Assembly (NCBI GenBank): GCA_963682005.1
Contig: OY820914.1
Location: forward strand, 3,908,145 to 3,972,144
Reading direction: 5' to 3'
From: Bacteroidales bacterium
GTDB lineage: Bacteria; Bacteroidota; Bacteroidia; Bacteroidales; FEN-979
Length of the DNA stretch: 64,000 nucleotides
A model generated the notes under the pieces. It worked only from the letters and a program-made list of their open reading frames with translations. It was not told where the DNA came from and searched no databases. Position numbers and translations under genes: made by a program. Below, piece after piece: positions 535 to 16,896 of the stretch; position 1 is the first letter of the stretch, and every line of letters starts with the position of its first letter.

Positions 535-1500
535 TTAGCAACAGGTGTCTTCAACGATCTTATTGCCTTCCTTGTCATATTCATAGAATCCGGCACCGGT
601 AAGCCTGCCAAGTTTGTTGGCACGGACCATTTTCTTGATCATGGGAGAAGCGATATACCTTGAAAGGCCAAATTCTCCGTAGAGATTTTCCATCCAGCGA
701 AGGATCTTGTCGAGACCCACTTTATCGGCAAACTCAAAGGGACCTAATGGCATGTTGAAACATGCACGCATGGTCAGGTCGATGTTTTCCATCGAACTGA
801 CACCTTCCATCAGGGTTTCGCAGGCTTCATTGAGCAATACAACGAAAAGCCGGACACTGATCAGTCCTGGTGACTCGATAACCGGAATTGCAATTTTATC
901 AAGCAATTTCACAAATTTCATCACTTTCTCATAGGCATCATCGCTGGTATAAAGACCTTTGGCGATTTCTACAACGCTAGCACCGGGTGCTGTTGTTGAG
1001 ATATGCAAACTGACGCAACGTTCATTGTGTTCAAGTTCTGAGGACATCTCAGTGACAACGAGGGTCGAAGAATTTGTTGCAATGATGCAATTCAGGCTTA
1101 CGTGTTTTTCGATCTTTTTAAATACGTCTTTGCGAATCTCGAGACTCGGCTCACGCTGCTTTGATTTTATTGCTTCGATCACGAGTTCACAGTCGTGGAA
1201 ATCTTTGTAATCGACGGTGCCTTTTATCCTGGAAAGGATGGCAGTCTTCTCACTGGGAGTAAGCCCCCAATGGTTTATCTCATTATCCAGCCCTTTTGAA
1301 ATTTCATCCAGTGAATGAAGGATCAGCTCTTCGGACAGTTCAAGAAAAATAATTTCAATTCCGTGTTTTGAAGCAGTAATCGCTAATTCCTGTCCTACGG
1401 TGCCACAACCGACGATCCCGACTTTTGAGAACAGGACTGTCGGACGCGCTTGTTTGCTCAGCCCATATTTTTCAATGGGTTCAATAATAATTTCTGCCAT
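535..1500 (-). CDS. 3-hydroxyacyl-CoA (3-hydroxybutyryl-CoA) dehydrogenase family protein
   Basis: 321-aa ORF. It has an N-terminal Rossmann motif (VGIVGCGTVGQELA) and a C-terminal 3HCDH-like segment (GPFEFADKVGLD, GRLTGAGFYEY). Confidence 0.8.
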   Translation of the reverse strand: MAEIIIEPIEKYGLSKQARPTVLFSKVGIVGCGTVGQELAITASKHGIEIIFLELSEELILHSLDEISKGLDNEINHWGLTPSEKTAILSRIKGTVDYKDFHDCELVIEAIKSKQREPSLEIRKDVFKKIEKHVSLNCIIATNSSTLVVTEMSSELEHNERCVSLHISTTAPGASVVEIAKGLYTSDDAYEKVMKFVKLLDKIAIPVIESPGLISVRLFVVLLNEACETLMEGVSSMENIDLTMRACFNMPLGPFEFADKVGLDKILRWMENLYGEFGLSRYIASPMIKKMVRANKLGRLTGAGFYEYDKEGNKIVEDTCC

Positions 1501-1604
1501 TTTTTCAGATTTATGTTGGAGTAAGTTTCAGATTGATCTTTGAGGCGGCAAAATTACTGGATTTAATTCATTGTTCAAAGAATAACAATAGAAAAAAAAC
1601 CGGT

Positions 1605-1991
1605 TTACATTTCCATCATTGCATCCACCTCTTCACGGGAGATCCTCGTCCAGTCGGGATCACTGAATTGGTTACCATCCCAGGAAAATGTAACCAGGTC
1701 AAAGGTTTCTCCATAGAAGGTGAGCTTGCTTCTCAGATCGGGGGAATGCTCAATAAAAAGGAGGTCTTCAGGTGATGCATTGATCTGGGTCAGGAGTTGG
1801 GTTGCCAGTGAGGCGATGCAATCTGTTATCGCTGTTCCGGGGTTCTGACGATAGATCTCGGTAATGATCACAAGGGTTTTTCCATCCTTACGGTGGATCG
1901 TCCGCAAACCGCATTTCGAGGGACTATCCCATAAACCCTTGAAATCGAAATAGGAATTCATGTAGTTTGTGAATTCGGGATTTATTTCCAT
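1605..1991 (-). CDS. hypothetical protein
   Basis: 128-aa ORF in line with its neighbours. I recognise no motif. Confidence 0.45.
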   Translation of the reverse strand: MEINPEFTNYMNSYFDFKGLWDSPSKCGLRTIHRKDGKTLVIITEIYRQNPGTAITDCIASLATQLLTQINASPEDLLFIEHSPDLRSKLTFYGETFDLVTFSWDGNQFSDPDWTRISREEVDAMMEM

Positions 1992-2044
1992 AATTAGTTG
2001 ATGAACTGATGAGTTGATGAGCTGACGAACTCAAAAATACTTCT

Positions 2045-3319
2045 TTATTCTTTTTCGTTGTTTACTTTTTTTCCGAAACTTTCGTTGACGAGGTCGCGGC
2101 GACGGGGGGCATAGGTGCCATCTTCAAGTTCCCGCTGCATCACTGTGCTTAACATATTGAACATCTTCTGGGTCTGCGGTTCATCTTTATAAAAGGTATC
2201 CCAGGCATAATGAAAGAGTTCTTCCAGCTTTTCCGCGGTCATGTGTTTTGGATGATACACGACTTTCCCGGCATTGTAATGATCCCAGTCATGGTCAAAG
2301 ATCCTGTTTTGCTTCCGCAGGTCTGCATAGGCCTTAGTATGAGGGAAAGGTGCAAGAACCGTGAATTCGGCGAGATCGAGGTCGATTTCAAGCAGGAAAT
2401 CGATCAGGCGGCGGATATCATCTTCTGTCTGGTTATCAAGCCCGAGAAGTATTGTTCCTTCCACGGCGATTCCGTAGTCATGGTATTGTTTGATGCGGTT
2501 CCGTATAAAATCCGACGTATCGAATACTGCCTGGTAAACATACCATGCACCTGCTTGAGCAGCGAGATCCAGCACTTCAGGCTTGTCTTCAATGGTATGG
2601 CTGACCCATTTCTTCTTCAGCGGGATCATCGCCCGGAAAAGTTCTTTCTCCCACTCCGTATCCAGGGCCAGGGAGTTGTCAACGATGAACAGCCGGTTAT
2701 TATCCATCTGTGACAGTTCCTCAACGACCCTGTCGATGGGTCTTGGACGGAATCCGCGTCCTCCAAGATAACGTACAGCACACGGATAGCAATCGTATAT
2801 GCAGCCACGGGAAGCATGGAACAGGTCGACCATCCTGAATCCCTTGTGGTAATAAAGATCTTTCTTCAGGATATCCCTTCTGGCAGGGCCGATCAGTGAC
2901 ATTTCCGGAGGATTGTTCAGGAAGTTATAGATTTTCTGAAGGTTTCCCGCCTGAAAATCTTTAAAAACCTTGTCGAGCCGTCCTTCCACTTCTCCAAGGA
3001 ATACGGAGTCAGCATGAAGAAGCGTCTCCTCAGCATGAAGCATCGTAGAAATCCCTCCGAATATCACTTTTTTCCCAAGGTTCCTGTACATATCAGCAAT
3101 CGCCCAACCGCGTTTCACCTGGGTGGTAAGCATCATGGAAATCCCCACGAGATCCGGTGAATCGTCAACAATAAGCTCTTCTACATTTTCGTCCGTAAAA
3201 TCGACTTCCACATTTTCAGGCAGAGCAGCTGCCATTACCACCGGTCCATGAGGTGGAAGATTAAAGATGGTTTGTCCTTCCAGTTTTTCCCAACGCGGGT
3301 ATATCAGTTTAAATTTCAT
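2045..3319 (-). CDS. B12-binding domain-containing radical SAM protein (rSAM-1)
   Basis: CxxxCxxC motif in SRGCIYDCYPC, preceded by a B12-binding-like Rossmann segment (PDLVGISMM...VIFGG). The probable start is MKFKLIYPRW at 3319, giving a TAATG 1-nt overlap with the upstream stop; the track ORF extends to 3352. Confidence 0.8.
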   Translation of the reverse strand: MKFKLIYPRWEKLEGQTIFNLPPHGPVVMAAALPENVEVDFTDENVEELIVDDSPDLVGISMMLTTQVKRGWAIADMYRNLGKKVIFGGISTMLHAEETLLHADSVFLGEVEGRLDKVFKDFQAGNLQKIYNFLNNPPEMSLIGPARRDILKKDLYYHKGFRMVDLFHASRGCIYDCYPCAVRYLGGRGFRPRPIDRVVEELSQMDNNRLFIVDNSLALDTEWEKELFRAMIPLKKKWVSHTIEDKPEVLDLAAQAGAWYVYQAVFDTSDFIRNRIKQYHDYGIAVEGTILLGLDNQTEDDIRRLIDFLLEIDLDLAEFTVLAPFPHTKAYADLRKQNRIFDHDWDHYNAGKVVYHPKHMTAEKLEELFHYAWDTFYKDEPQTQKMFNMLSTVMQRELEDGTYAPRRRDLVNESFGKKVNNEKE

Positions 3320-5031
3320 TAATGCTGTTTTCGTTTTACCTTGATGATGCAATCGCTGAGTTCTGAGATGATCCTGTTTTTTTCGCTCTGCCGCGGAACA
3401 TTCTTTTCCAGTGCTTTCCGGTAGTAACGAATGCTGCTGTCAGGCATATCCCTTGACTGGTAATATTCTCCGGTGAGGGAATAAACTTCAAAATACCCAG
3501 GATTGGTATCAATGAATTCATGAATAAAAGAACTGGTCAATGGCCCGCTGCTTTTTGACATGGCAGCAGATGATACTATTTTCCTCATTTCCCTGAATCT
3601 CCGGAAATGCTTGTAATTTGCAGAAGTAAGAAATGAATCTCCGGGAATGGAAAGCTCCCGTTCAGTGATTTCCATCTTATGTTCCAACCCTGCAAAGGTA
3701 TGAATAATTTTTTTCAGGTCATAACAGAGGTATGGCCCCAGTTGCCATGGGTCAGTGGAAACCCAGACAAGGAGCTTTTCAGGCTGGAAGATCACCGAAT
3801 GATGACAGATCAGCTGGTTGATGGCCTTTTCATTGCCCATTCCAAGGTCTTCATGATTCAGCCCCGACTGATCCCGAAGGATCTCTGCCATTTCAGGAAT
3901 TCCCAGCACTTTTTTACCGGAGATATCCTGAATAACTTTTTTGAACCGGTAGCCGGATGCATTCTCCCGCAGATCCTTGATATTTGCCGGAAGTGAGGAA
4001 TATTTCCCGGACTGGAAATGGTTTGTACAAACGATGTGATCCGAATGCGGGTCGACAATTTCCATGCCCCTGGTGGTTTTCTCAATGATAACGGCTTTGT
4101 TGTCAGAAGCTGAACCGATAAGAATGGATTCGGAGACGAATGTTTCCCGTTTCCCTGCAATGGCAGATGCTTCGCCGATGTTTTTTGCGTATTGCAATAT
4201 TTCACGGGCAAGGATCGAAATGGGTGTCCTGGCAGAGAAAGGAATATCAGACCTGGCTGCGTTTATCGTGACAGTGAGGCCCTTTTCATTCATTCCCGAA
4301 ACAGCACCGATCATTGCAGGCCAGGTGATCATTATAAACGGGTACCCTTCCTCCGGTTTTTCAAAGCAAATGATCTTTGTTTCTGCGAATTGATCGCCAA
4401 CATAGAAATCAAAATTCCGGCCGATCAGAAGGGAAGAATCGACAGTTTTCCCAGACCAGACCCCGAATGATGTACAGCCAACAAGGCCGAGGTTCTGCAC
4501 CATATGACCGATATCATGGGCAGAATGGTAATTCAGCATGCGCTGGTAATTTGTTCCAAGGGATGAAAATTTCCCCGATGCCGATAATGAGATCCCATAG
4601 ATCTCCTGCCTGTATTCTTCTGTGAAATACTTGTCAAGGTCCCTGTTGAACCAATAAACAAACTGTTTAAGGAATCCAAGGTAAACACCGGAAGGAACGA
4701 GTTCCCGGATCCTGGCAAGAAAAGCGATCTCCTGTTTTTCGATCAGCGGCTTGCACAATTTTCCGTTAATGACGCCTCTTTCAAAAGGTTTTCCTTCAAG
4801 ATACATTTCCCACAGGCCATTTGAATTTTTCTTCAGCCAGTTTTCTTCACAACGATAAAAATCCGGCTCGGGGTTTTCCGTTTTAAGGCGAATGGAAGAC
4901 AAATCACTTATCTCTGGCGGATTTACACGGATGGCAAAATGGAACCATACCATGAACAGAATGATCAGACATGCCAGAATACCAAGCAAACCAGGCAGCC
5001 TTCTCCGTCTTCTTTTGCCTTTGTCAGTCAT
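3319..5031 (-). CDS. C45-family / Ntn-hydrolase-fold acyltransferase-hydrolase-like protein with N-terminal membrane anchor and TPR-like tail
   Basis: 570 aa. It has an N-terminal basic plus hydrophobic segment (KRRRRLPGLLGILACLIILFMVWF). The Ntn-type block GLVGCTSFGVW...LIGRNFDF...ITWPAMIGAVSGMNEKGLTVTINA resembles the C45 / acyl-CoA:6-APA acyltransferase family. The C-terminus (YYQSRDMPDSSIRYYRKALE) is TPR-like. Confidence 0.55.
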   Translation of the reverse strand: MTDKGKRRRRRLPGLLGILACLIILFMVWFHFAIRVNPPEISDLSSIRLKTENPEPDFYRCEENWLKKNSNGLWEMYLEGKPFERGVINGKLCKPLIEKQEIAFLARIRELVPSGVYLGFLKQFVYWFNRDLDKYFTEEYRQEIYGISLSASGKFSSLGTNYQRMLNYHSAHDIGHMVQNLGLVGCTSFGVWSGKTVDSSLLIGRNFDFYVGDQFAETKIICFEKPEEGYPFIMITWPAMIGAVSGMNEKGLTVTINAARSDIPFSARTPISILAREILQYAKNIGEASAIAGKRETFVSESILIGSASDNKAVIIEKTTRGMEIVDPHSDHIVCTNHFQSGKYSSLPANIKDLRENASGYRFKKVIQDISGKKVLGIPEMAEILRDQSGLNHEDLGMGNEKAINQLICHHSVIFQPEKLLVWVSTDPWQLGPYLCYDLKKIIHTFAGLEHKMEITERELSIPGDSFLTSANYKHFRRFREMRKIVSSAAMSKSSGPLTSSFIHEFIDTNPGYFEVYSLTGEYYQSRDMPDSSIRYYRKALEKNVPRQSEKNRIISELSDCIIKVKRKQH

Positions 5032-6532
5032 TCTTTATCTTTTTAAGAAGATACTCTAACCCGATCAATTCACTGCATGTCTGAACTGCACCGATCGTAA
5101 CGCCAAGTACCCCGTGAAGATTGGTGTTCTGCCCCGTAAAAAAGAGTCCCGGGATCTTTGTTCTCGGAAGAACGATTGTTTCCAACGGATGATTGAAATC
5201 CTTCTGAATGCCATACATCGAACCTTCAGGGGTTCCTGTATAATCGCGCCAGGTAAGGGGAGAGGCTGCATCAATGCTTTTTAAGCATGCCCTGATACCT
5301 GGGAATTTATGTTCAACAAGATCCAGGAGTAGTTCCGTTTTCTTTTCCTTCCATTCATTATAGGACCGGCCCCTGCTTCCAACAATCGTTTTATCCCATG
5401 TCCTGACCTCGTTGAAGTCCATGTATGTCATTATTATGGCTGACTTTGCATATTCATTCATTCCTGAGTATGCTGGAGTATGAAGCATATAAAAGGAAGG
5501 CCAGATCCGGGCTGACCGGGCTGACCAGACATCATAACTTGTATGAAAATAGAAATTGTGATCAAGGTTTTTAAAACTGTTCTCTTTAAAAACAAGATAT
5601 AATGAGAAGGATGAGATGGTGTTCCCGAAATTTATCATTCTCCCTGACCAGGACTTTCTTACAGGGATCCCGTCGAACATGCTGATGGTGGCCGAAGGAT
5701 GGATATCCGAGATCAGGCGTTCTGCCTGGAAATTCAGACCGTCTCTGGTTATGGCTGTGAAAGTATCGTTCCCGAACCTGATCTTTGAAACTTCTTGTTT
5801 TGTAAGAAGCTGTCCGCCGTTTGATAAGATCTGATTTACCAATATCGTGGCCATCCTGTTACTTCCATCAACAGGACGCCATGCACCGGAGATAAATGAA
5901 TGATTGACCAGAGCGGCGATGTAGAGGGGTGTTTTATCACGTTCTCCTGCGTAAAGGAAATTGTTGCCGGCAAGGACGGATGAAAGGTGGCCCCTCTCCC
6001 CGGCCCCCTCCCCAAAAAGGGAGGGGGAATTAAGGTTCTGGTAGTATTTGAGGGCGGATTGATCTTTATATTGATTTTCTGAGTGGTTTCCAGGGATCTC
6101 AAGGTTATACAGCGGAAATGATCTGCTTATCTCCTGCAATTTATTTGTATAGGATCGCAATGATCCTTCCTGGTCAGGAAAGAAGGGGAGAAGTTGCTCT
6201 GTGAAGTTGTCAAATCCCATTGCAATGGGGTATTCAATATCATTGAATGAGATGACGTCAAATCCGTCAGGGTTCATTCGCCTGAACAATTCTTTGCCGG
6301 TAAGGCCAAAATAGCTGAAATACCTGTGAAGTACCTCGCCTTCATCCAATCCGCCAATATAGTGGACACCGGTATCGAACTCAACACCGTTTCGAATGAA
6401 CGTCTGCAGACACCCGCCTGGTTGGTGATGTTTCTCAAGGATGCAAACACTCATTCCTTCCCTGCTCAGGATGGCACCGCATAGCAATCCTCCCAATCCG
6501 CTACCGATTATGATAACATCGGATTTCATCAT
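5024..6532 (-). CDS. FAD-dependent oxidoreductase, phytoene desaturase (CrtI)-like
   Basis: 502 aa with an N-terminal dinucleotide-binding motif (VIIIGSGLGGLLCGAILS...EKHHQPGG). It has an ATGA overlap with the upstream gene and an 8-nt overlap with the downstream gene. Confidence 0.75.
   Translation of the reverse strand: MMKSDVIIIGSGLGGLLCGAILSREGMSVCILEKHHQPGGCLQTFIRNGVEFDTGVHYIGGLDEGEVLHRYFSYFGLTGKELFRRMNPDGFDVISFNDIEYPIAMGFDNFTEQLLPFFPDQEGSLRSYTNKLQEISRSFPLYNLEIPGNHSENQYKDQSALKYYQNLNSPSLFGEGAGERGHLSSVLAGNNFLYAGERDKTPLYIAALVNHSFISGAWRPVDGSNRMATILVNQILSNGGQLLTKQEVSKIRFGNDTFTAITRDGLNFQAERLISDIHPSATISMFDGIPVRKSWSGRMINFGNTISSFSLYLVFKENSFKNLDHNFYFHTSYDVWSARSARIWPSFYMLHTPAYSGMNEYAKSAIIMTYMDFNEVRTWDKTIVGSRGRSYNEWKEKKTELLLDLVEHKFPGIRACLKSIDAASPLTWRDYTGTPEGSMYGIQKDFNHPLETIVLPRTKIPGLFFTGQNTNLHGVLGVTIGAVQTCSELIGLEYLLKKIKND
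5991..6032. repeat. REP-like G/C hairpin element lying in frame inside the CrtI-like CDS
   Basis: Reads cccctctccccggccccctccccaaaaagggagggggaatt. There is a 9-bp stem (6004-6012 pairs with 6019-6027) and a 6-nt loop. It encodes SPSLFGEGAGERGH on the minus strand and resembles the inner hairpin of the 19181-19243 element. Confidence 0.65.
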
Positions 6533-9500
6533 GGACGGATAATTATAAGAATGTTGGACGTCAGTTTATTGTCGTCGATCACTTCAATATTCAGGTTAAA
6601 TTCATCAACAACCCTCCTGATCATTTCCTGGGAAGTGAAATAGAGTGACCCGGAATCCTCAATTGTTTTGTTGAATCCCGACCTGGTAGAAAAGAATTCG
6701 GTCAGCCGGGTACCTGCATGGCGTTCCTTCTTTGACTGATCTGCATCACGGATGATGATCACCCCATTCTTCTTCAGATTGGTCATACAGGATCGCAACA
6801 GCTTTTCCTGTTCCGGTTCAGGAAGGTAATGCAGAATATCAGACATCAGGAAAGCGTCTTGTGAAATGACAGGATATTTGGTGATATCACAGGAAATAAA
6901 CGTGATCCGGTCATTCTTCGCATAACAATTATTTGCAACAGCAATTTTCTCCGGATCATAGTCAATTGCGGTGATCATACGGTCTTTGGAGGTAAAAGCC
7001 AGGATGTATGAGATGTAACCGTAACCACATCCGATATCGAGAATATCACCTTTTCGCGGCATGAGTGAATCAATGACACGATAATTCTTTTCCAGCCTCA
7101 TCTTGATCTTTACGTACCATTCAAGAACCGGCCCTTTAAAGATGTAATTCAGAGCGATCATTCTTCTGTAATAATCCGGTGTTCCCATCTCTGATCTGAA
7201 TTCATCATAGAGATGTATATAATGTTGCCGCCAGCCTCTTGTTTTCTCAGATACAGTGGTTCCAAAACGGGTATCATCCCAGGCCACCCTCGGTTGTATC
7301 TTCATGTACAACCCATTGGGCTTTCCCCAGAAAACCCCCCGGGGAAGGAAATCGCCTGAGCCAAAGACCACGATAGGTAATATATCCACCTTCAGTTTTT
7401 CCGAAAGATAGAAGGCGCCACGATGAAACCTCCTGATATTATGGTCATCCGAACGATGTCCTTCAGGAAAGATCAGGATCGAATAACCATCCGCCACAAT
7501 GTCCTTCAGTTTATCCATAATTGCATCGATCCCTTCATCAGCATTGAAATAACTTGCCATCCTTGCGATCGGACCAAATACAGGTGACTTATAGACCCAT
7601 GCCGTGGTCAGGATGATGATCTTCGGATACAACCTGAGGAATGCAGGAGTTTCGATAAGAGACTGGTGATTGCTGATAATGATAGCCGGTTTTACAAAGT
7701 CTTCACCCAGTGGATTCAGGAGCTTTCGTTCTATCGGGAAAGTAAATGCTATGTATGCTCTACAGAGCATTGAAAAGGTCTTGTGGAAAATGTATTGCTT
7801 GCGTTTCTTCGGGACAGGTAACAAAATGAAGATCAGCGAACCGAAGATAACCATGATGACAGAGATCAAAACGATATTTCCCCATGTGACAAAGGTTTTA
7901 ACGACGATCCGGGCGGTGATGGGAAAGATGCCCTGGCGTTGCCTGTCAAGAAGGAAAAGATTCATCAGCCATGGTTGGATCGTAAATGAAATGACCACAA
8001 CAGAAGTTATTCCTACAACGGAAATCAGCGCGATTGAATTCAGTGCGGGATGACGCGCAAAAAACAAGGCTCCAACCCCGATTAGCGTTGTAATGGCGGA
8101 GAGGAAGATGGATGTTTTATAGGTTGTGAGCTCAGAAAGGCCATATTTTGAATTATGGAGAAGTCCGCGCATCATGAGGATGCTGTAATCCACCCCAAGG
8201 CCAAAAATGAAGGAGGAGATAATGATGTTGATGATATTGAAACGGATATCAAATGCTCCCATAAAACCCAGCGTGATCACCCAGCTGAGGAACATTGGCA
8301 GAGCTGCGATAAGGCCTAACTCAATCCTTCCGAAGGACAAAATGAGCAGCAACGATACAAAGATCATGGAAAGCCTCACCAGGAGATCAAAATCATGCCT
8401 GACATTTTCAACAAGACGATCGGAGATGAGTTGCCTGTCGAACACAACAAGGTTCGGATGACCGGAAAATGCGCTGCTGACCAGTTCCTTTTTTTCCCCG
8501 GGGACTTTGATAATCGTGGAGATCATGGTCATTTCGGGGGTTTCATTGATCCACTCGGCCAGGAATCTTATTTTAACCCTGTTAGTCTCCTGAACATTCA
8601 TGGGACTGAATTTCCTGTAAAGAAGATCCATCACCGGGTTGAATGCGGATTCCCTGAATTTGTATTTTTTTCCCGTTTCAATCAGCCGCTTCCGGAGGTT
8701 GTCTTTTCGCTCAGGAGTCCAGAATTGCTCCCAACGGTTCAATCGTTTAGCTTGAACAGAATCCGATGGAAGCATGAGGCCAACGGCGGATTGTTGAACC
8801 AGGAATTTCCCGTCATTGACCGATCGGACATAAAACTCATTCTTTTCATGGTTTTTCAAAACGGAGGCCAAATCTTTCCCTGTGGAAACAAGGTAAACAT
8901 TTTTCATCGAGGCATTGTTGAGCCTGTCGAGGTTTCTCTCTCCCTTTCGCAATTCATCCGTCATGTAATTGATGGACATCATATTTTTCTCAAATCCGGT
9001 TTTCCGTATCAGGAATAATCCACCTGCAGTGAGAAGAAGAATAATCGTGATCAGGCCATACTTTTTTTCAAAGTGAACAGACACAATACTATTAATGATC
9101 TCTGTCCTCCCGGGATTGTCTGAGAAATCCCTTTTGTCAAGGAAGTGAGGGAGAAGCACAAGGGCAAAGAATGCGGCCCCTGCAACGCTTAAGCTGGCAA
9201 ACCATCCCAGGTCATGCAGAACGCCGGATTTCAGAAAGACAAGACAAATGAATGCTGCAGCAGATGTCAGGAAACAGAGGAAAATCGTAAGCGACATTTC
9301 TTCGAGGGTGGCTTCAATATCATGCGTCTTCCTGAAATGATTAATAATATAAAGTGCATAATCCACGATCAGACCCAGGATCACCGTGCCGATCCCGAGA
9401 GCGATGGCGGATATTGTTCCTTTGGTGATATACATAATTGACAAGGCAAATGCACCGCCGAAAAGAGCCGGCAGGAATCCCAGCAAAGGGTATTTAATGC

Positions 9501-10380
9501 TCTTGAAATACCAGGCAAGGAGCAGGATGATAAGCCCGATGGAAATTGAAAACGTGATGGTAATATCCTTTTTTAACCGGTCCGCATTCGCTGATGCAAC
9601 GGCAATGCTTCCAAAATATTCACCTTTGACCTGCCCGTTCGACTCTTCGGACATCGTGCTGAGGATTGAACCGACACCTTTGATCAATTTCCCGTTCCGT
9701 TTCGACTCGCTTGCGGGATTTGCTGAGGTGATGAATATCAGCAGGTTTTTCCGGTCACTGGTCATGATGTATCCGTCTTCGATCACGAAATTATCACCCG
9801 ATGCAAGAGTTCTCATTTTCTGCAATGGGATCATCGTAAATCCAAGCGGATCCTTAACAAGGACATTTTTTAGTGCAAAACTCGCCGGAGAAACAAGCAT
9901 CCTGTAATTGTTACGCATCGTTTTCTCAATGGAATCGGGCAAGAGCGATTTTTCAATCTGCCGATAATCTTCATCGGTTAAATAAATGGGAAGATGATCA
10001 TAAAAAAAGTTGAAATAATAAGCCATCAATGTATCAGGGATGGCGCCGGTCACAGATTTAATGGTCGAGGAATCAAACGCGGAGGATAATTTACCGGTAA
10101 AACTGGCTGCAGCATCTATCAAACGGCGGGGGTCGGCAGGTGCATTGGTATCAGCCTGGTAGAGGCGAACGACAAGCTTATCAAAAAATTTAAAATGATG
10201 CACGACATATTCAAAGTGATCATGATTACCATTACTGATCCTCTCCCCTGAAATATTCTCCTCAAACGTGATCCGTGATGCAAGAATGATCATTCCGGCC
10301 AGAAGCGAGATGCAAAAGACAAGGAATGTAATCCTGTGCCTTTTGAAAAACCTGTATACCCGGATGAAAAAATTTGACAT
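6529..10380 (-). CDS. three-domain fusion: MMPL/RND-type membrane exporter + PlsC-type acyltransferase + SAM-dependent methyltransferase
   Basis: 1283 aa. Residues ~1-810 contain two multi-TM bundles typical of MMPL. Residues ~860-1060 carry acyltransferase motifs (SNHQSLIETP and FPEGHRS). Residues ~1090-1283 carry methyltransferase motif I (ILDIGCGYGYISYILA). Confidence 0.75.
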   Translation of the reverse strand: MSNFFIRVYRFFKRHRITFLVFCISLLAGMIILASRITFEENISGERISNGNHDHFEYVVHHFKFFDKLVVRLYQADTNAPADPRRLIDAAASFTGKLSSAFDSSTIKSVTGAIPDTLMAYYFNFFYDHLPIYLTDEDYRQIEKSLLPDSIEKTMRNNYRMLVSPASFALKNVLVKDPLGFTMIPLQKMRTLASGDNFVIEDGYIMTSDRKNLLIFITSANPASESKRNGKLIKGVGSILSTMSEESNGQVKGEYFGSIAVASANADRLKKDITITFSISIGLIILLLAWYFKSIKYPLLGFLPALFGGAFALSIMYITKGTISAIALGIGTVILGLIVDYALYIINHFRKTHDIEATLEEMSLTIFLCFLTSAAAFICLVFLKSGVLHDLGWFASLSVAGAAFFALVLLPHFLDKRDFSDNPGRTEIINSIVSVHFEKKYGLITIILLLTAGGLFLIRKTGFEKNMMSINYMTDELRKGERNLDRLNNASMKNVYLVSTGKDLASVLKNHEKNEFYVRSVNDGKFLVQQSAVGLMLPSDSVQAKRLNRWEQFWTPERKDNLRKRLIETGKKYKFRESAFNPVMDLLYRKFSPMNVQETNRVKIRFLAEWINETPEMTMISTIIKVPGEKKELVSSAFSGHPNLVVFDRQLISDRLVENVRHDFDLLVRLSMIFVSLLLILSFGRIELGLIAALPMFLSWVITLGFMGAFDIRFNIINIIISSFIFGLGVDYSILMMRGLLHNSKYGLSELTTYKTSIFLSAITTLIGVGALFFARHPALNSIALISVVGITSVVVISFTIQPWLMNLFLLDRQRQGIFPITARIVVKTFVTWGNIVLISVIMVIFGSLIFILLPVPKKRKQYIFHKTFSMLCRAYIAFTFPIERKLLNPLGEDFVKPAIIISNHQSLIETPAFLRLYPKIIILTTAWVYKSPVFGPIARMASYFNADEGIDAIMDKLKDIVADGYSILIFPEGHRSDDHNIRRFHRGAFYLSEKLKVDILPIVVFGSGDFLPRGVFWGKPNGLYMKIQPRVAWDDTRFGTTVSEKTRGWRQHYIHLYDEFRSEMGTPDYYRRMIALNYIFKGPVLEWYVKIKMRLEKNYRVIDSLMPRKGDILDIGCGYGYISYILAFTSKDRMITAIDYDPEKIAVANNCYAKNDRITFISCDITKYPVISQDAFLMSDILHYLPEPEQEKLLRSCMTNLKKNGVIIIRDADQSKKERHAGTRLTEFFSTRSGFNKTIEDSGSLYFTSQEMIRRVVDEFNLNIEVIDDNKLTSNILIIIRP

Positions 10381-10390: not shown

Positions 10391-11608
10391 TTACTTTATG
10401 GATCCTGATTGTTCCTGAGCCGTGACGTTATGTTTTTTCCTGAAAATTGTGAGTAAAATGTATGAAGCCGTTCCGCCTGCAGTTGCAAGGCAGATACCGA
10501 AAAAAGCACTGCCGATAAGGTATTGCAGAAGATTTTCCTTCACCCAGTGCATTGAAAAGCCGGGGTTATACTGAACCTCCGGGCCATGGGACCCAAGTAA
10601 AAATCCGCCAAAAATATAACTCAGAAAAAGAATCACCGGCAACAAAGGAGGAATGCTTATGTTCGATGCAGCAATCGTCACGAATTTATTTAATTTGAAG
10701 AGATGAGCTGTGCCAAATGCAATCATCATCTGCCATCCCCAGACAGGTGTGACCCCGATAAACAATCCGATGGCCACTGAAAAAGCAAGCCGCATATTCG
10801 AATCTTTGCTCTCGAGGACATGATCCCGGATGAATTGCCTGATCGATTTCTTCCGGATCTCTTTTAAGAATTGGACAGGTCTTACCCATAGAAGCGCTAT
10901 AAAAACCAGAAGTGTGTTCAGGATGCTTATCCTTGTGAAATCCCGGAATTTCCGGAAATGGGAGACCCGTTCATCTTTTGGTGCATAGTAGACATTGACA
11001 GGCAAGGCCAGTATTCTGATCCCTTTCCAGGCAGCCCTGACAAGCACTTCCACCTCGAACTCGAATTTCCTGGTATAAAATTTAACGTCTTTCAACAGGG
11101 CTATCGGGTATAAACGGTAACCTGACTGAACATCCGGGATCTTCAATCCTGTTTCAACCTTGTACCAGAAGATGGAGAACTTGTGCCCGAAACTGCTGGT
11201 TCCCGGAACATCGGACTGATCCATATTCCTTGCACCCACGATAAGAGAATCGGGGTCCTTTTCAATCCAGTCGATGAATGCAGGAAGATCAGCCGGAAAA
11301 TGCTGGCCATCCGAATCGATGGTGATCGCATAGCGAAATCCTTTTTTTACCGCAAAGCTGAATGCATTGCGAAGGGCCATTCCCTTTCCCATGTTTTCAG
11401 GATGTGTGAGGATATGGAGGCGCCTGAATTTTTCGAGAATTACGGGCGTATTGTCGGTGGAGCCGTCATTGACAATGATGATATCGTTCGTATAGTTTTC
11501 CACATCCCGAATGACCATTTCCAGCGTTTTGTCATTATTATAGGTTGGAATGATGACACAACACTTCTGTTCCGAGAATTTTTTTCTGATCCCTGTAAAA
11601 TCGTGCAT
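10391..11608 (-). CDS. family 2 glycosyltransferase fused to a C-terminal membrane (DUF2062-like) domain
   Basis: GT2 signature CCVIIPTYNNDKTL...IIIVNDGSTDNT...ITIDSDGQH, followed by hydrophobic C-terminal helices. I trimmed the start to MHDFTG (ATG at 11608); the 542-aa track ORF reads through an intergenic tandem repeat. Confidence 0.75.
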   Translation of the reverse strand: MHDFTGIRKKFSEQKCCVIIPTYNNDKTLEMVIRDVENYTNDIIIVNDGSTDNTPVILEKFRRLHILTHPENMGKGMALRNAFSFAVKKGFRYAITIDSDGQHFPADLPAFIDWIEKDPDSLIVGARNMDQSDVPGTSSFGHKFSIFWYKVETGLKIPDVQSGYRLYPIALLKDVKFYTRKFEFEVEVLVRAAWKGIRILALPVNVYYAPKDERVSHFRKFRDFTRISILNTLLVFIALLWVRPVQFLKEIRKKSIRQFIRDHVLESKDSNMRLAFSVAIGLFIGVTPVWGWQMMIAFGTAHLFKLNKFVTIAASNISIPPLLPVILFLSYIFGGFLLGSHGPEVQYNPGFSMHWVKENLLQYLIGSAFFGICLATAGGTASYILLTIFRKKHNVTAQEQSGSIK

Positions 11609-11639
11609 TTCAGAAGTTGGAGGATGATATGAATGAAGA

Positions 11640-11647
11640 CAAAAGTA
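11640..11647 (-). promoter_or_regulatory. candidate Bacteroidetes -7 box (TActTTTG) for the GT2 operon
   Basis: The minus strand reads TACTTTTG, matching TAnnTTTG. It lies 32 nt upstream of the ATG at 11608, and only a near-match -33 (TTTC) lies 17 nt further upstream. Confidence 0.3.
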
Positions 11648-11678
11648 CGAATTTTCTGCTAATGGAAAGTGAAGAGAA

Positions 11679-11712
11679 GCTGGATGCTGGATGCTGGATG
11701 CTGGATGCTGGA
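11679..11712. repeat. tandem heptamer array GCTGGAT x ~4.9
   Basis: Direct reading: gctggatgctggatgctggatgctggatgctgga. The reverse complement CCAGCATCCAGC occurs at 11786-11797. Confidence 0.9.
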
Positions 11713-11830
11713 GTATAATATTTTGGCAAGTTAACGATATTTGTTTTTGGACACACACAAATCCCAATACCCGAAACACACACAACCAGCATCCAGCTTC
11801 GCCAATTAAGATTATTAGTATTTTTGCCGG

Positions 11831-13171
11831 GTGAAGATCCTCCTGATAAACCCGCCGCGTTCGCCGGAAAACAATATCCTGAAATTCGCCCCGGAGGCGG
11901 CAAAACAATTTATCCATAAGAAACTGATCGGTCCCCCGCTGGGATTGCTCACCATTGCTGCTGCTGTAAAAGATCATGATGTAACAGTCTTTGATTCGAA
12001 AGGGGAGTATGATCTTCATCCGGATGGACCTTCCCTGGAATTACTGGTGAAAGGACTTCTGGAAAAGCACAAACCAGATATCGTCGGAGTGACGATCATC
12101 ACCTCTGAGTTTGATCTTTCGCTTGAGATTTTTCGTGTTGTAAAAGAATATGACCCGGGGATTCTCACGGTAGCCGGGGGATTGCATGCCACACTCTGCC
12201 CGAAGGATTTTGCGGAGACACCCGTGGATGTGACAATCCCCGGCCAGTGCGCCCACATTTTCAGAGAGGTTGTCATTACGGCTGAAAGCAAAAAGGATCT
12301 TGCAATGGTGCCGGGGATTCTTCTTAATACAGATAATGGCTTTACAAAAACAAATGGAACTGCAAGGCCGTTTGATCATTCCGATGCCGGCTTCCTGAAA
12401 ATTGACAGGCGTTTCCTGGATAAGTGGATCGGCACATACAAAGTCGGGAACAGCCCTTTTCCTTCCACGTATGTTTACACTTCCCTGGGTTGTCCTTATA
12501 AATGTACATTCTGCTCGATCTGGACACAGTTTAAAGGAAAATATTATCAGCGTGATGTGGAGAGTCTCATCGAAGAGCTGAAATCGATCGATGAATACCC
12601 GGTTGTGCGGTTTGCAGATGCCAATACAGTGGTTGACTTTGATTTCATGAACCTCCTGTTCGACCGGATCGTTGAGGAAGGGATCAAAAAGACTTTTATC
12701 ATGGATATCCGTGCCGATGTGGTGGTTCAGCAACCTGCGCTCATCGAGAAATTCGCAAAGGCCGGATTGAAAGTCGTGATCTGCGGGTTTGAATCGTTCC
12801 GGGACAGTGAACTGAAAAAATACAATAAGTCATCACCGGCAAGGTATAACCAGGAAGCCATCGGCATCTTTGAGAAGAATGGCATCTTGGTCCGGGGAAA
12901 TTATGTGATACCGAATGATTACACCGCGGATGACTTTAAGGCACTGGCTGACTATTCCGCTGCGAACCCCGTGGTATATGCAGGATATACAATTTTAACA
13001 CCCATGCCGGGAACGGTCTATTATAACCAGGTCAGGCACCAGATCGTGGATCACGATTACCGGAAATACAATTTTTTTAATTCCGTGATGAAGACCGTAA
13101 TCCCGCATGATGAGTTTCATGAAATGGTCGGGGGACTTTGGCTGATCAAGAAAGGGAAAGACGTTATATAA
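11831..13171 (+). CDS. B12-binding domain-containing radical SAM protein (rSAM-2)
   Basis: 446 aa with a GTG start (MKILLINPP). It has a B12-binding-like N-terminus (PDIVGVTII) and CxxxCxxC in SLGCPYKCTFCSIW. Confidence 0.8.
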   Translation: MKILLINPPRSPENNILKFAPEAAKQFIHKKLIGPPLGLLTIAAAVKDHDVTVFDSKGEYDLHPDGPSLELLVKGLLEKHKPDIVGVTIITSEFDLSLEIFRVVKEYDPGILTVAGGLHATLCPKDFAETPVDVTIPGQCAHIFREVVITAESKKDLAMVPGILLNTDNGFTKTNGTARPFDHSDAGFLKIDRRFLDKWIGTYKVGNSPFPSTYVYTSLGCPYKCTFCSIWTQFKGKYYQRDVESLIEELKSIDEYPVVRFADANTVVDFDFMNLLFDRIVEEGIKKTFIMDIRADVVVQQPALIEKFAKAGLKVVICGFESFRDSELKKYNKSSPARYNQEAIGIFEKNGILVRGNYVIPNDYTADDFKALADYSAANPVVYAGYTILTPMPGTVYYNQVRHQIVDHDYRKYNFFNSVMKTVIPHDEFHEMVGGLWLIKKGKDVI

Positions 13172-13172
13172 T

Positions 13173-13205
13173 GAATATTGAACATTGAATATTGAACATT
13201 GAATA
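13173..13205. repeat. tandem array GAATATT/GAACATT (14-nt unit x ~2.3)
   Basis: Direct reading immediately after the TAA stop at 13169-13171. A related ggaatattgaatcttga precedes the next start codon. Confidence 0.85.
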
Positions 13206-13382
13206 GAGAAAATAAAGTCCAATCTGAAAAGCTCTGTTTACCACAAAGGCGCAAACCTGCCTGCTGGCGGGCAGGAACGCTAAAAATGAACTCATTGTAT
13301 CAAATTATTTGCGTCTTGGCGTCTTAGCGGTAAAGTTTTAAAAATCACTTTTCGGAGTAAACGCAACATGGAATATTGAATC

Positions 13383-14810
13383 TTGAAAAGAATTCTCCTG
13401 GTAAATACGAACATTGAAAAGATGCCGTACCCGGTGCCGCCGCTGGGATTGTGTTTACTGGCGTCGAGCCTTGAAAGTGACTATGAGGTAAAGATCTATG
13501 ACGGGGTGTTTGATGAAGGAAGGTCCTTGGTTGATGTTGTTAAAGAATTCAATCCCGATTATATCGGGTTCAGCATCCGGAATGTCGATGATATTGTTGC
13601 AGACCGAAAGGTGTTCTACATCGACAGGATCATCTCTGATTTTATAAACCCTGTAAGGAACTGCACAAATGTCCCGCTGATCATTGGCGGAAGCGGATTC
13701 AGCATGTTCCCGGAGGAGCTGATGGAAATGACGGGAGTAGATTATGGGATAGCGGGAGAGGGGGAGAAACTAATGATGGCTCTGATCTACTCACTCAACC
13801 AGGGGGTGCAGCCTCCAACTAGCCCGCAGATCCTGGTGAAAGGGCAGAAGAATCCGGGAATATCGACAAGTGTTTCCTTCCTCGAACTTTCCGGGATGAA
13901 ATTATCCGAGATCGACCGGCATATCGATTTTACGCCATACAAACAGCGCGGTGCCTATTCAATCCAGACAAAGCGCGGGTGTTCCCACGGGTGCATTTAC
14001 TGCACATACCCTGTTGTTGAAGGTTCCTGCTTCCGGATGCGTGATCCGTATGAGATCGCGTGTGAAATTGAGGCAGCAGCCAAAAGGCTGGGCGATGTGA
14101 TGTTTGAATTCGTGGATTCGACGTTCAACGATCCGAAAGGACATGCGGAAGCGATTTGCAGGGAGATCATAAAAATGAAGCTGAAGGTGAGGCTGCGCAC
14201 CATGGGAATAAACCCGGGGCACAGCAGCAGGGAGCTTTTTCAGTTGATGATCGATGCAGGATTTACCCAGATCGATGCAACCCCCGACAGCGCTTCGCCG
14301 AAAGTGATGAAAAACCTGGGCAAAGGATTCAACCTGGAAGAGACCCGGCGCATGGCTGACCTGATCAGGGAATTCAACCTCCCGACGATGTGGTTCTTTC
14401 TATTCGGCGGGCCGGGAGAGGATGAGGTCACTTTTGCTGAAACACTTGATTTCATTGACCAATTTGTCAACCCGGATGACCTGGTTTATATGACAGCCGG
14501 CCTCCGGATCTATCCACAGACACCCTTATACAATATCGCCTTAAAGGAAGGAAAGATCACTGCAGCGCAGTCGATCCTGAATCCGCCGGCTTATTATTTC
14601 CCCGACCGGTTGCCAAAAGAAAAGCTTGATTCCCTGATTGAAATTGCGGCCCGGACACGGCCAAACTGCCTTCCGGCAAATTCGACCACCCCGCCGGAGG
14701 AGATGAGGAAAGAGGCATTTATCCTGCGCCAGCAGGAAAACCTCACGGAACCTATGTTCAGAACGCTCCTCAGGATCAGGAAACGGTGGATTGCAGAAGG
14801 AAGATTGTGA
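13383..14810 (+). CDS. B12-binding domain-containing radical SAM protein (rSAM-3), paralog of rSAM-5
   Basis: 475 aa with a TTG start. It carries PDYIGFSIRNVDD and QTKRGCSHGCIYCTYP (CxxxCxxC). Its signature is very similar to that of the 40659-42026 product. Confidence 0.8.
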   Translation: MKRILLVNTNIEKMPYPVPPLGLCLLASSLESDYEVKIYDGVFDEGRSLVDVVKEFNPDYIGFSIRNVDDIVADRKVFYIDRIISDFINPVRNCTNVPLIIGGSGFSMFPEELMEMTGVDYGIAGEGEKLMMALIYSLNQGVQPPTSPQILVKGQKNPGISTSVSFLELSGMKLSEIDRHIDFTPYKQRGAYSIQTKRGCSHGCIYCTYPVVEGSCFRMRDPYEIACEIEAAAKRLGDVMFEFVDSTFNDPKGHAEAICREIIKMKLKVRLRTMGINPGHSSRELFQLMIDAGFTQIDATPDSASPKVMKNLGKGFNLEETRRMADLIREFNLPTMWFFLFGGPGEDEVTFAETLDFIDQFVNPDDLVYMTAGLRIYPQTPLYNIALKEGKITAAQSILNPPAYYFPDRLPKEKLDSLIEIAARTRPNCLPANSTTPPEEMRKEAFILRQQENLTEPMFRTLLRIRKRWIAEGRL

Positions 14811-14820
14811 ATAAAAGCTG

Positions 14821-14870
14821 GCTGTGCCTGAACTCTGTGTCCTCTGTGCCTTCCCTGTGACCTCTGTGGT
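14821..14870. repeat. CTCTGTG-family repeat block containing a dispersed 18-mer
   Basis: Reads gctgtgcctgaactctgtgtcctctgtgccttccctgtgacctctgtgg, between convergent gene ends. The 18-mer at 14842-14859 is the reverse complement of 17359-17376. Confidence 0.8.
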
Positions 14871-14880
14871 AAAGATAAAT

Positions 14881-15294
14881 TTACAGTTGAACGGTATTCT
14901 TAGGTTGCATGTCGGTCTCAAGACTCCAGATCGTTGCATTGCCATGTACCAGGCGGAAAACCGCCATCAGCTTGAACCCGGTTTGTTCGATCCAGCTCTT
15001 CAGAAATGGCCTTGCCTCAAGGATCTCTTTCTTCAGATCGATGTCTTTATCCAGGTTTTCCACAGTCCCTGATATTCTTACCTGGAAATCATCCTTGTGA
15101 AAACAAAGCTCTACCAAAGGATTCAATGATAACTGCCGGTAAAGGTCCTTGGATTTCGCGGTCATGAAATAGATGCCGGTATCGTCGGCCTTGTGCAGCA
15201 TGAGTGTCCGCACATGAGGGATGTTCCCGTCGGTCGTTGCCAACTGGAAGGAGGGGTTTTCTGTCAGGAATTTTAGTATCTCTTTTTTTGTCAT
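14881..15294 (-). CDS. pyridoxamine 5'-phosphate oxidase-like FMN-binding family protein
   Basis: About 137 aa from MTKKEILKFL. The pattern ...ATTDGNIPHVRTLML...YFMTAKSKDLYRQL..NP.VELCF is typical of the PNPOx-like/general-stress-26 fold. The start is trimmed from the track's 15309. Confidence 0.55.
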   Translation of the reverse strand: MTKKEILKFLTENPSFQLATTDGNIPHVRTLMLHKADDTGIYFMTAKSKDLYRQLSLNPLVELCFHKDDFQVRISGTVENLDKDIDLKKEILEARPFLKSWIEQTGFKLMAVFRLVHGNATIWSLETDMQPKNTVQL

Positions 15295-15373
15295 TTTTCT
15301 ATAGCACACGGATTACGCGGATCAGGCGGATTTACACGGATAAGCTTATAAGCGATAATCCGCAAAATCCGCG

Positions 15374-16288
15374 TTATCCGCGTTCCAATAAGTTAATAAC
15401 CGGGAAGAAGTCGGAATTTCCTTCCACGAATTTAGCATTTTTTGCAAGGTTTCGACAGGGACCGCATTCAATAAATGTTTTTACCCCCGATTCCTGCAGC
15501 TTTAGTTGTGTTTTATACCAGTTCAGCCGGGTATAAAGATTCCTTACGAATTCATGAGCCAGGGCTTCCTTTGTAATGATCATAACCTGGTCAACCAGCG
15601 AAATGATCCTCACGGATGGTTCTTTGATGGCAATGTTTCCTGCGATGAACTTTTCGAATCGTGCGGCCGTTCCGGCTAACAACCGTGAATGGTACGGAAC
15701 CGAAACCCTTAGCATCACCGTATTCAGCGCTCCTTCGTTTTTTGCCGTTTCCATCAGCTCAGAAATCTCCTTATGGTTTCCTGATAGTACGAATGAATAG
15801 GCGCTGTTCTGATTCGTGATCTCAATGGAAGGGAAACTTTTGGAGATCATTTCTTCAAGGTCTGACTGGCTTAATCCAAGGATGGCGGCCATCCCGAACT
15901 TCGTTTCACCGATAATTTCCAGGATTGACGAATAGGCTTCCCTGATAAGCAATAATCCGTCTTCAAAGGAGATCGCACCAGCCTGGAAGGCAGCAGCATA
16001 GATTCCCATGCTGTAACCGGCGCTGTATGCGGGAAAGATGTTCTTTTCCTTCAGTAATTGTGAATAACTGCATCCGAGGATATCGGAAATATACTGGGTT
16101 CGGAGTTCTTCCTCCAGAAAATCATTTGAAGCAGGGTGGAACGATGTCAGTGCCGGATCAACGGTCTTTGCGGCAATGGTAAGAAAGTTACGGAATATCG
16201 CGCCGAAATCCTTGTCACGGCCGAGAAGATCATCCGGATAATCGTTGACGAAGGCAGGAAATATAAAGGCTATGGGTTGTGTAAGCAC
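15374..16288 (-). CDS. ACP S-malonyltransferase (FabD)-like acyltransferase
   Basis: 304 aa with a GxSxG nucleophile elbow (AGYSMGIYAA). It starts with AFIFPAFVN-type residues and has VSVPYHS, as in malonyl-CoA:ACP transacylases. Confidence 0.7.
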   Translation of the reverse strand: MLTQPIAFIFPAFVNDYPDDLLGRDKDFGAIFRNFLTIAAKTVDPALTSFHPASNDFLEEELRTQYISDILGCSYSQLLKEKNIFPAYSAGYSMGIYAAAFQAGAISFEDGLLLIREAYSSILEIIGETKFGMAAILGLSQSDLEEMISKSFPSIEITNQNSAYSFVLSGNHKEISELMETAKNEGALNTVMLRVSVPYHSRLLAGTAARFEKFIAGNIAIKEPSVRIISLVDQVMIITKEALAHEFVRNLYTRLNWYKTQLKLQESGVKTFIECGPCRNLAKNAKFVEGNSDFFPVINLLERG

Positions 16289-16302
16289 CGAACCGTTTAT
16301 GT

Positions 16303-16605
16303 TCAGAGTTCCAGTAATTTATTTTCGTGTTCAATAATGAGCATCTGCATGTCGATCAGTTCGCCGATGGTTTGAACAGGATGCTTGATGGCATACTTGC
16401 CGATCGTTTTCAGTTCAATATCGAGGGTGTATTTTTTCTTGAAGATCTCGATCAGTTCCAGGAACATCAGCGAATCCCCGTCAAGATCCTTGATTATATT
16501 GGACTGATCATTCAATGATGAGAGTTCAACTTCACATTCATCTGCAAAAAATTTATATACGATCTCTTTGACTTCCTGCCGTGTGTTTTCCGTAATTGTA
16601 GCCAT
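16303..16605 (-). CDS. acyl carrier protein
   Basis: 100 aa with the phosphopantetheine attachment motif DLDGDSLMFLELI. Confidence 0.75.
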   Translation of the reverse strand: MATITENTRQEVKEIVYKFFADECEVELSSLNDQSNIIKDLDGDSLMFLELIEIFKKKYTLDIELKTIGKYAIKHPVQTIGELIDMQMLIIEHENKLLEL

Positions 16606-16656
16606 TCCTGATATTTATTTTGGGGTTATCTGATCTGCAAAAATACACTATTTTAT

Positions 16657-16700
16657 TTTTCACTCTTAACTTTTCACTCTTCACTTTTCACTCTTCACTT
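16657..16700. repeat. tandem 14-nt unit TTTTCACTCTTCAC x ~3
   Basis: Direct reading: ttttcactcttaacttttcactcttcacttttcactcttcactt. Confidence 0.85.
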
Positions 16701-16856: not shown

Positions 16857-16896
16857 CATTTTACATTTTGCATTTTGCATTTTGCATTTTGCATTT
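16857..16896. repeat. tandem heptamer array GCATTTT x ~5.5
   Basis: Direct reading: cattttacattttgcattttgcattttgcattttgcattt. Confidence 0.9.

Follow-up and report, generated by a model that had tools for sequence, protein, structure and literature searches.

A trifunctional exporter-acyltransferase-methyltransferase polypeptide in a Bacteroidales pigment-lipid cluster has the annotated architecture of FlxU

Why would a cell produce a lipid exporter, an acyltransferase and a methyltransferase as one polypeptide? The question is raised by a reverse-strand open reading frame (ORF) at positions 6529-10380 of a 64,000-nucleotide stretch of Bacteroidales DNA (GenBank assembly GCA_963682005.1, contig OY820914.1, positions 3,908,145 to 3,972,144; the whole stretch is hereafter called the window). 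A first-pass annotation had described this ORF as a fusion of an MMPL exporter, a PlsC-type acyltransferase and an S-adenosylmethionine (SAM) methyltransferase that would couple the final acylation and methylation of a product to its export. The ORF scan yielded a single ATG-initiated frame of 1283 codons, closed by its stop codon (6529-6531) and devoid of internal stops, which confirmed that the frame is intact. When the protein was scanned against Pfam, the three proposed domain assignments proved correct, all above cut-off: MMPL (PF03176) at residues 206-412 (35.8 bits, cut-off 20.5), Acyltransferase (PF01553) at residues 897-1005 (51.3 bits, cut-off 23) and Methyltransf_25/31/11 at residues 1112-1219 (47-53 bits, cut-offs 21-27). 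The motifs quoted at first reading were also found at the expected places, NHQSLIETP at residues 904-912, FPEGHRS at 971-977 and ILDIGCGYGYISYILA at 1113-1128, and the junctions proposed at 7800-7950 and 7110-7200 agree with the true domain boundaries. In the NCBIfam scan, the whole-protein models all stayed below their cut-offs. Three above-threshold domains in an ORF of this length make a chance ORF impossible, and the 1283-residue protein does unite three parts, for lipid export, lipid acylation and methylation.

This trifunctional architecture is real and ordinary, as it is the standard annotated FlxU of flexirubin-type clusters, and the fusion is very probably the Bacteroidota FlxU ortholog. 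A 2026 taxonomy paper, which gives reference flexirubin genes in the lettering of Schöner et al., lists FlxU with a RefSeq 'trifunctional ...' product name (PMC12968099), and the gene order in the window matches the FlxT-FlxU-FlxV-FlxW order of that reference list. FlxU of Chitinophaga pinensis (Cpin_1873) and its Flavobacterium johnsoniae counterpart (Fjoh_1078) resemble the window protein in length (~1283-1291 aa) and domain order, and their clusters likewise have FlxT upstream, FlxV and FlxW downstream and an aromatic ammonia-lyase gene first. The Chitinophaga filiformis ortholog (as well as that of a Chitinophaga sp.) is collinear with the window protein over residues 1-1282 with identical Pfam content, and its neighbours in common with the window are the deacetylase, LolA, GT2-DUF2062, FlxU, FlxV and FlxW genes. 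The identity between the window protein and the reference orthologs is nevertheless only 34-37%, 37% for C. filiformis.

A search of 5.8 billion proteins retrieved the identical protein (P0001) on a 5.27 Mb NCBI contig and more than 120 full-length relatives of ~1280-1300 aa, 47-60% identical and with an identical Pfam set. Relatives are encoded by 218 species-representative genomes; locus details cover the best 80 of these 218, which are mostly metagenome-assembled genomes (MAGs) of Bacteroidales, Prolixibacteraceae and Draconibacterium, plus Chitinophaga (37%, full length) and Flavobacterium (34%). The acyltransferase-methyltransferase half matched 506 representatives of 50% identity clusters at E<=1e-30, and 113 of the 150 best were at least 1200 aa long, with the match at ~810-1280. 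An architecture that is annotated as FlxU, that carries a RefSeq 'trifunctional ...' name and that has relatives in 218 genomes is common and already annotated in flexirubin clusters, the very finding that the first-pass annotation had named as counting against it. The accompanying statement that the three functions are normally encoded separately holds for proteobacterial aryl-polyene clusters, such as that of E. coli CFT073, and fails for flexirubin clusters, in which they are fused in FlxU. A literature search found no paper joining MMPL, acyltransferase, methyltransferase and aryl polyene.

Residues 1-810 (7951-10380, reverse strand) are predicted to form an RND lipid transporter of the MMPL/HAE3 type, akin to ApeM, HpnN and the MmpL proteins. 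Hydropathy gives the 1+5+1+5 arrangement of transmembrane (TM) helices of RND proteins, with one helix at residues 17-37, five in 273-413, one at 441-461 and five in 666-806, and two soluble loops of ~200 residues each (38-270 and 463-664) that correspond to the periplasmic domains; the secondary structure of the AlphaFold2 (AF2) model agrees. The NCBIfam HAE3 and HpnN models match both halves of the transporter, and the fusion does not reach the equivalog cut-offs of HpnN, BstA or HAE3. Given the Pfam and structural matches and the missed equivalog cut-offs, the domain is best considered a member of the RND superfamily and not one of these named equivalogs. The hhalign alignment with E. coli ApeM (98.4% probability) runs through 710 columns and takes in the two periplasmic domains. 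The AF2 model of this part has a mean predicted local distance difference test score (pLDDT) of 82.1 and a predicted TM-score (pTM) of 0.69, and its top Foldseek structures are HpnN (5khn, E 9e-21, TM-score 0.64) followed by MmpL3/4/5. These proteins, at TM-scores of ~0.6-0.65 and 10-14% identity, share with the window transporter the 12 TM helices and two periplasmic domains; they differ from it in having no fused acyltransferase or methyltransferase, and their cargos are hopanoids, trehalose monomycolate and siderophores. Two putative proton-relay pairs were located, D340-Y341 in TM4 (9358-9363, reverse strand), invariant in 27 and in 64 homologs, and D731-Y732 in TM10 (8185-8190, reverse strand), in which D731 is invariant and Y732 at least 90% conserved in the same sets; we take them to correspond in position to the Asp-Tyr pairs that relay protons in MmpL3.

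The transporter is followed by a 13th hydrophobic segment (residues 824-857, hydropathy peak 3.17) within a predicted acyltransferase membrane anchor (residues 824-880; 7741-7911, reverse strand). In the AF2 model of residues 801-1283 (pLDDT 86.9, pTM 0.83), this anchor consists of a very hydrophobic 31-residue helix, 823-853, and a second helix, 858-880 (23-53 and 58-80 in model numbering), with lysines and arginines on both sides of the anchor helix (DRQRQ...AR before, KKRK after). The core at residues 881-1040 (7261-7740, reverse strand) is predicted to be a PlsC/ApeD-like acyltransferase of the lysophospholipid (LPLAT) type in which the HX4E...PEG catalytic set is intact. Block I, HQSLIE (H905-E910; 7651-7668, reverse strand), block III, FPEGHR (F971-R976; 7453-7470, reverse strand), and block IV, DILPIVV (residues 999-1005, same strand), are all present, and H905, E910, P972 and E973 are invariant in the homolog alignment. 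The best solved-structure match found by phmmer is Thermotoga maritima PlsC (5kym; residues 840-1032, E 6.5e-10); it begins at fusion residue 840 and chain residue 18 and thus includes the N-terminal helical region of PlsC. This 1-acyl-sn-glycerol-3-phosphate acyltransferase has the HX4(D/E) and PEG blocks and N-terminal helices before the core, as in the window protein; it differs in being a stand-alone protein of 247 residues devoted to bulk phospholipid synthesis, with Asp in block I in place of Glu. E. coli ApeD also matches this part (BLASTP E 8e-13, 28% identity), as does, weakly, the NCBIfam model NF006386 for acyl-[ACP]--phospholipid O-acyltransferase (ACP, acyl carrier protein; E 9.8e-5). 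PlsC is anchored in one leaflet of the membrane by a two-helix motif. We infer that the acyltransferase and the methyltransferase of the fusion are anchored in the same way on the cytoplasmic face, since TM12 ends in the cytoplasm, lysines and arginines flank both sides of the anchor and the acyl-ACP or acyl-CoA and SAM substrates are cytoplasmic.

A conserved helical linker (residues 1041-1105; 7066-7260, reverse strand) leads to the methyltransferase. It is gap-free in 27 homologs at a mean pairwise identity of 52%, contains an invariant KGP..EW (1082-1088) and is modelled as four confident helices. Residues 1106-1283 (6532-7065, reverse strand) are predicted, from Pfam, conservation, AF2 and Foldseek, to be a class I SAM methyltransferase with intact SAM-binding motifs: motif I reads ILDIGCGYG (residues 1113-1121; 7018-7044, reverse strand), D1115, G1117, C1118, G1119, G1121 and the acidic post-I residue D1140 are invariant, and the Rossmann fold is modelled at a pLDDT of ~90. 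Foldseek matches in the PDB were to generic small-molecule enzymes only (E down to 5e-12), among them MM_2633, Rv2258c, RedM, CysG, DnrK and phosphoethanolamine N-methyltransferase, and none stood out as informative. A relationship to ApeB, the ring C-methylase, was considered and rejected: BLASTP gave an E of 1.9, and hhalign (53.6% probability) aligned the generic Rossmann core only, at ApeB residues 179-338, leaving the first ~178 of its 352 residues outside the match. Near the C-terminus, the family-specific motif TEFFSTRSGFNKT (TEFFSTRxGFNKT; residues 1227-1239, window 6664-6702, reverse strand), with E1228, S1231, T1232 and N1237 invariant, lies in the sole low-confidence stretch of the methyltransferase model (pLDDT ~59-74) and may serve as a lid over the substrate or as a loop touching the membrane.

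The fusion belongs to a flexirubin/aryl-polyene-type pigment-lipid cluster of ~47 kb, roughly at 535-47090, as judged from the window ORFs and domain scans of their products. A co-directional run of genes extends from ~47090 down to at least 535. It opens with an aromatic amino-acid ammonia-lyase (FlxA-like; 45537-47090, reverse strand; PF00221, E 5e-163), a ketoreductase, a ketosynthase (KS), an LpxL-type acyltransferase (FlxE; 42023-42934, reverse strand), which matches the C-terminal half of E. coli ApeJ (E 5e-33), and a TIGR04072-type B12-radical SAM protein. These are followed by two BtrH/DarH-type acyltransferases, an ABC transporter and a thioesterase, and then by KS and CLF-like ketosynthases, a deacetylase, a LolA-like periplasmic carrier (26183-26887, reverse strand; domain scan), an ApeI-like dehydratase and a second thioesterase. 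Next come two enoyl-CoA hydratases, a DarB-like KSIII, a radical SAM protein, a 3-hydroxyacyl-CoA dehydrogenase, a cytochrome c, KS, ACP, MAT and two divergently oriented radical SAM genes; the run closes with GT2-DUF2062, the fusion, a CrtI-like oxidoreductase, a C45 acyltransferase, a radical SAM protein and a second dehydrogenase. The gene directly upstream of the fusion, FlxT (10391-12019, reverse strand), encodes a GT2 glycosyltransferase-DUF2062 protein with 33% identity to the N-terminal half of ApeJ (E 2e-32), and the fusion ATG lies 10 nt after its stop codon. Directly downstream, FlxV, a CrtI/phytoene-desaturase-like FAD oxidoreductase identified by domain scans (5024-6532, reverse strand), has its ATG overlapping the TGA of the fusion (ATGA), and FlxW (3319-5031, reverse strand) is a C45/Ntn-hydrolase-type acyltransferase (NF040521, 207.9 bits, cut-off 85).

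The closest pathway for comparison is the Ape system of aryl-polyene synthesis, in which ApeM, ApeD and ApeB of E. coli CFT073 are encoded by three separate genes (PMC8253772), in contrast to the one polypeptide of the window. Conversely, the GT2 and LpxL-type acyltransferase parts are fused in E. coli ApeJ and separate in the window. The ApeM-like transporter and ApeD-like acyltransferase being fused in one case and the ApeJ parts in the other, the two phyla use one toolkit in different fusions. The logic of both pathways is otherwise alike, with a type II polyketide synthase polyene, a lipid anchor and export by an RND protein and a LolA-like carrier. In Xenorhabdus (doucetiae), ApeD acylates lysophosphatidylglycerol in an early lipid-anchor step, ApeJ subsequently glycosylates the lipid and attaches the chromophore, ring methylation takes place during chromophore synthesis, and the proposed route of the lipid to the outer membrane is by way of ApeM and LolA/LolB-like proteins (bioRxiv 10.1101/2020.12.19.423268). 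Contacts between a lipid RND transporter and biosynthetic machinery at the cytoplasmic face have a precedent in the MmpL5-AcpM complexes (PDB 9dp6, 9mw0, 9u51).

Taken together, the best explanation, which we consider probable, is that the gene encodes a single inner-membrane FlxU protein of the pigment-lipid cluster in which exporter, acyltransferase and methyltransferase are combined. Its role would be the acyl transfer, methylation and export of the pigment lipid of the cluster, an assignment that we favour with some reserve. By analogy with ApeD in Xenorhabdus, the acyltransferase would transfer an ACP- or CoA-bound acyl or polyenoyl chain to a glycerolipid-type acceptor, and the methyltransferase would methylate either the pigment or the lipid that carries it. 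Powered by the proton motive force, the RND domain would extract the finished lipid from the inner membrane and hand it to the LolA-like carrier of the cluster, which probably accepts the exported lipid and would take it on to the outer membrane. The fusion would keep the three activities at a 1:1:1 stoichiometry and hold acyl transfer and methylation beside the exporter. A coupling of synthesis to export, as proposed in the first-pass annotation, is plausible; true substrate channelling between the domains is doubtful.

Several points weigh against this explanation. A literature search on Fjoh_1078, Cpin_1873 and FlxU retrieved Schöner 2014 only, and no biochemical or genetic experiment on the window protein or on FlxU was found. 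The 31-residue anchor helix is long enough to span the membrane, in which case the two enzymes would lie on the periplasmic side, and only the flanking charges and the location of the cofactors counter such a topology. The methyltransferase is not an ApeB ortholog, hence its substrate is not transferable from the Ape system. The description of the acylation and methylation as final is itself doubtful, given the early ApeD step and the methylation during chromophore synthesis in Xenorhabdus (bioRxiv 10.1101/2020.12.19.423268); there, ApeJ glycosylates the lipid and carries out the final acylation only after ApeD has acted, so that the fusion need not be responsible for the last steps before export. 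Finally, the cluster is unlike classical flexirubin clusters: it contains five B12-radical SAM genes, and the AMP-ligase FlxY was not found anywhere in it by domain scans. With neither FlxY nor a DarA-type gene beside the KSIII, the product may not be a flexirubin.

The order of steps in Xenorhabdus, with ApeD acting before ApeJ and methylation occurring during chromophore synthesis, would also suit a fusion that serves co-localisation only. The domains would then be active at non-consecutive stages, for example the acyltransferase early, on the anchor, the methyltransferase early, on the ACP-bound chromophore, and the RND domain after the FlxT and LpxL-type steps, so that the fusion would fix stoichiometry and membrane location without channelling. 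The different fusions found in the two phyla likewise suggest that fusion within the pathway has been opportunistic. However, the junctions are of fixed length, with zero gaps at residues 809-823 and 1041-1105 across the 27 homologs, the linker between acyltransferase and methyltransferase is itself conserved, and the well-defined two-domain unit that AF2 builds from them (pTM 0.83) points beyond a loose tether, at least for these two domains. We therefore regard simple co-localisation as possible, and prefer the view that the trifunctional FlxU holds acyl transfer and methylation at the exporter.

Catalysis could also be confined to the exporter and the acyltransferase, the methyltransferase being a structural or regulatory pseudo-enzyme. 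In the ortholog of a Flavobacterium sp. MAG (L080, 9998-13681), unlike in the window protein, motif I is lost, reading ILHIADDFG, and the C-terminus is shorter. The decay may go with differences in ring methylation among flexirubin types. It agrees with the description of Fjoh_1078 by Schöner et al. as a 'predicted exporter- and acyltransferase domain' protein (PMC3992019), and both indicate that this lineage tolerates the loss of methyltransferase chemistry. By contrast, the window protein, its Chitinophaga counterpart and 109 of the 110 full-length representatives with a locatable acyltransferase motif all retain GxGxG and the acidic post-I residue. Among the 27 homologs, the TM bundles average 0.68-0.69 in pairwise identity, the acyltransferase core 0.67 and the methyltransferase core 0.53, and at this 53% the methyltransferase core was rated as conserved as the rest of the protein. 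Moreover, domain scans of the cluster genes revealed no further class I methyltransferase. A pseudo-enzyme is thus improbable for the window protein.

Transport might also run the other way. LplT is a flippase that supplies the acyltransferase Aas with lysolipid, and transporter-LPLAT fusions of the LplT-Aas type exist; in a comparable arrangement, the cytoplasmic acyltransferase would receive a lysolipid acceptor through the RND domain, which would fetch it from the periplasm or the outer leaflet. The weak NF006386 match of the acyltransferase domain (E 9.8e-5) is in line with such a role. This possibility is very improbable, as the closest structural relatives of the transporter, HpnN and MmpL3/4/5, are outward lipid transporters, a LolA-like carrier is encoded in the cluster and flexirubin is located in the outer membrane (PMC3992019). 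Lastly, an assembly or annotation artefact, in which two or three adjacent genes would have been joined by sequencing error, found no support and is effectively ruled out by the same ~1285-aa uninterrupted ORF in more than 120 independent assemblies and by the gap-free junction columns, the only locus that looked split at the first junction (L069) being interrupted by an 'nn' scaffold gap at exactly that position.

What, then, does the cluster make? Schöner et al. regarded flxP-flxU as genes for export 'by yet unknown mechanisms' and cited McBride et al. 2009, in which a spontaneous F. johnsoniae mutant lacking flexirubin was complemented by plasmid-borne Fjoh_1078-1089 (PMC3992019). In Bacteroidales, a more unusual feature than the fusion is the conserved B12-radical-SAM module that surrounds it. 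In six Bacteroidales loci (L002, L003, L005, L009, L013 and L049), the fusion is always found in a module of the window type (window 535-3352 and 11831-21975), composed of a radical SAM protein (514 aa), 3-hydroxyacyl-CoA dehydrogenase, cytochrome c, KS, ACP, MAT, two opposite-strand radical SAM proteins, FlxT, the fusion, FlxV, FlxW, a radical SAM protein (435 aa) and a 128-aa hypothetical protein. By contrast, the B12-radical SAM, KS, ACP, MAT, 3-hydroxyacyl-CoA dehydrogenase and cytochrome c genes are absent within 10 kb on either side of the Chitinophaga (L059) and Flavobacterium (L080) orthologs. The B12-binding/radical SAM protein at 2045-3352 (reverse strand), with a CX3CX2C motif at 'CIYDCYPC', occupies the place of the Chitinophaga AMP-ligase FlxY (L059, 17466-18752), and it is 85-87% identical across MAGs in which the fusion is at only ~50%.

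Other members of the cluster were compared with family models. The radical SAM protein at 40659-42026 (reverse strand) belongs to TIGR04072, 'lipid biosynthesis B12-binding/radical SAM protein' (rSAM_ladder_B12), with 423.8 bits against a cut-off of 360, and that at 13383-14810 (forward strand) scores 319 bits, just under the same cut-off. Two BtrH_N/DUF4872 proteins are encoded on the reverse strand at 37212-38228 and 38788-39789, the former passing the equivalog cut-off for 'BtrH-related acyltransferase DarH' (399.7 bits, cut-off 300). The KSIII at 22045-23196 is only weakly DarB-like (115.6 bits, cut-off 450), and a DarA-type gene was not found beside it. This cluster may thus use another route to the resorcinol half of a classical flexirubin, or not make that half at all. 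A literature search on DarH and flexirubin found nothing mechanistic, and the papers retrieved for aryl polyene, radical SAM, Bacteroidetes and ladderane do not, at the level of titles and abstracts, deal with the radical SAM module. We put forward tentatively, and think it unlikely, that the Bacteroidales FlxU finishes and exports an undescribed aryl-polyene lipid, probably oxygen-independent and not a flexirubin, built by the B12-radical SAM proteins with KS/ACP/MAT and cytochrome c, the acyltransferase and the non-ApeB methyltransferase acting on its lipid carrier at the mouth of the RND transporter. The fusion would in that case be a natural single-polypeptide example of synthesis-coupled lipid export.

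As its architecture has been annotated since 2014, the fusion adds no new kind of system. It may rather be read as a "Rosetta stone", which argues that the ApeM-type exporter and the ApeD-type acyltransferase cooperate physically in the widespread aryl-polyene and flexirubin clusters, and it would allow the coupling of lipid synthesis to export to be studied in one polypeptide, an idea that is itself not new.

The window contains a single copy of the fusion. Some Bacteroidales MAGs possess a second fusion paralog, ~46-48% identical to the window protein: the pairs L005 and L043, L048 and L076, and L042 and L046 each lie on one contig, and L013 and L040 are in the same MAG on separate contigs. 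In the one mapped case (L043), the paralog is found in the classical polyene part, between KS and the LpxL-type acyltransferase, without adjoining FlxT, FlxV or FlxW.

The FlxT ORF as called (542 aa) shares 189 nt with the 5' end of the divergent radical SAM gene (11831-13171, forward strand). Its orthologs match only ~390-415 residues and the GT2 domain starts at residue 154; the true start is thus probably internal, which would probably leave a divergent promoter region between the two genes. A 230-aa ORF at 12041-12733 (reverse strand), wholly inside the opposite-strand radical SAM gene, is probably spurious. At the other end of the cluster, a tRNA gene (48313-48386, forward strand) and the start of the ammonia-lyase gene are separated by ~1.2 kb without any ORF of at least 110 aa (window 47091-48386), and the G+C content falls to 0.41-0.42 in 48001-52000, marking the upstream edge of the cluster.

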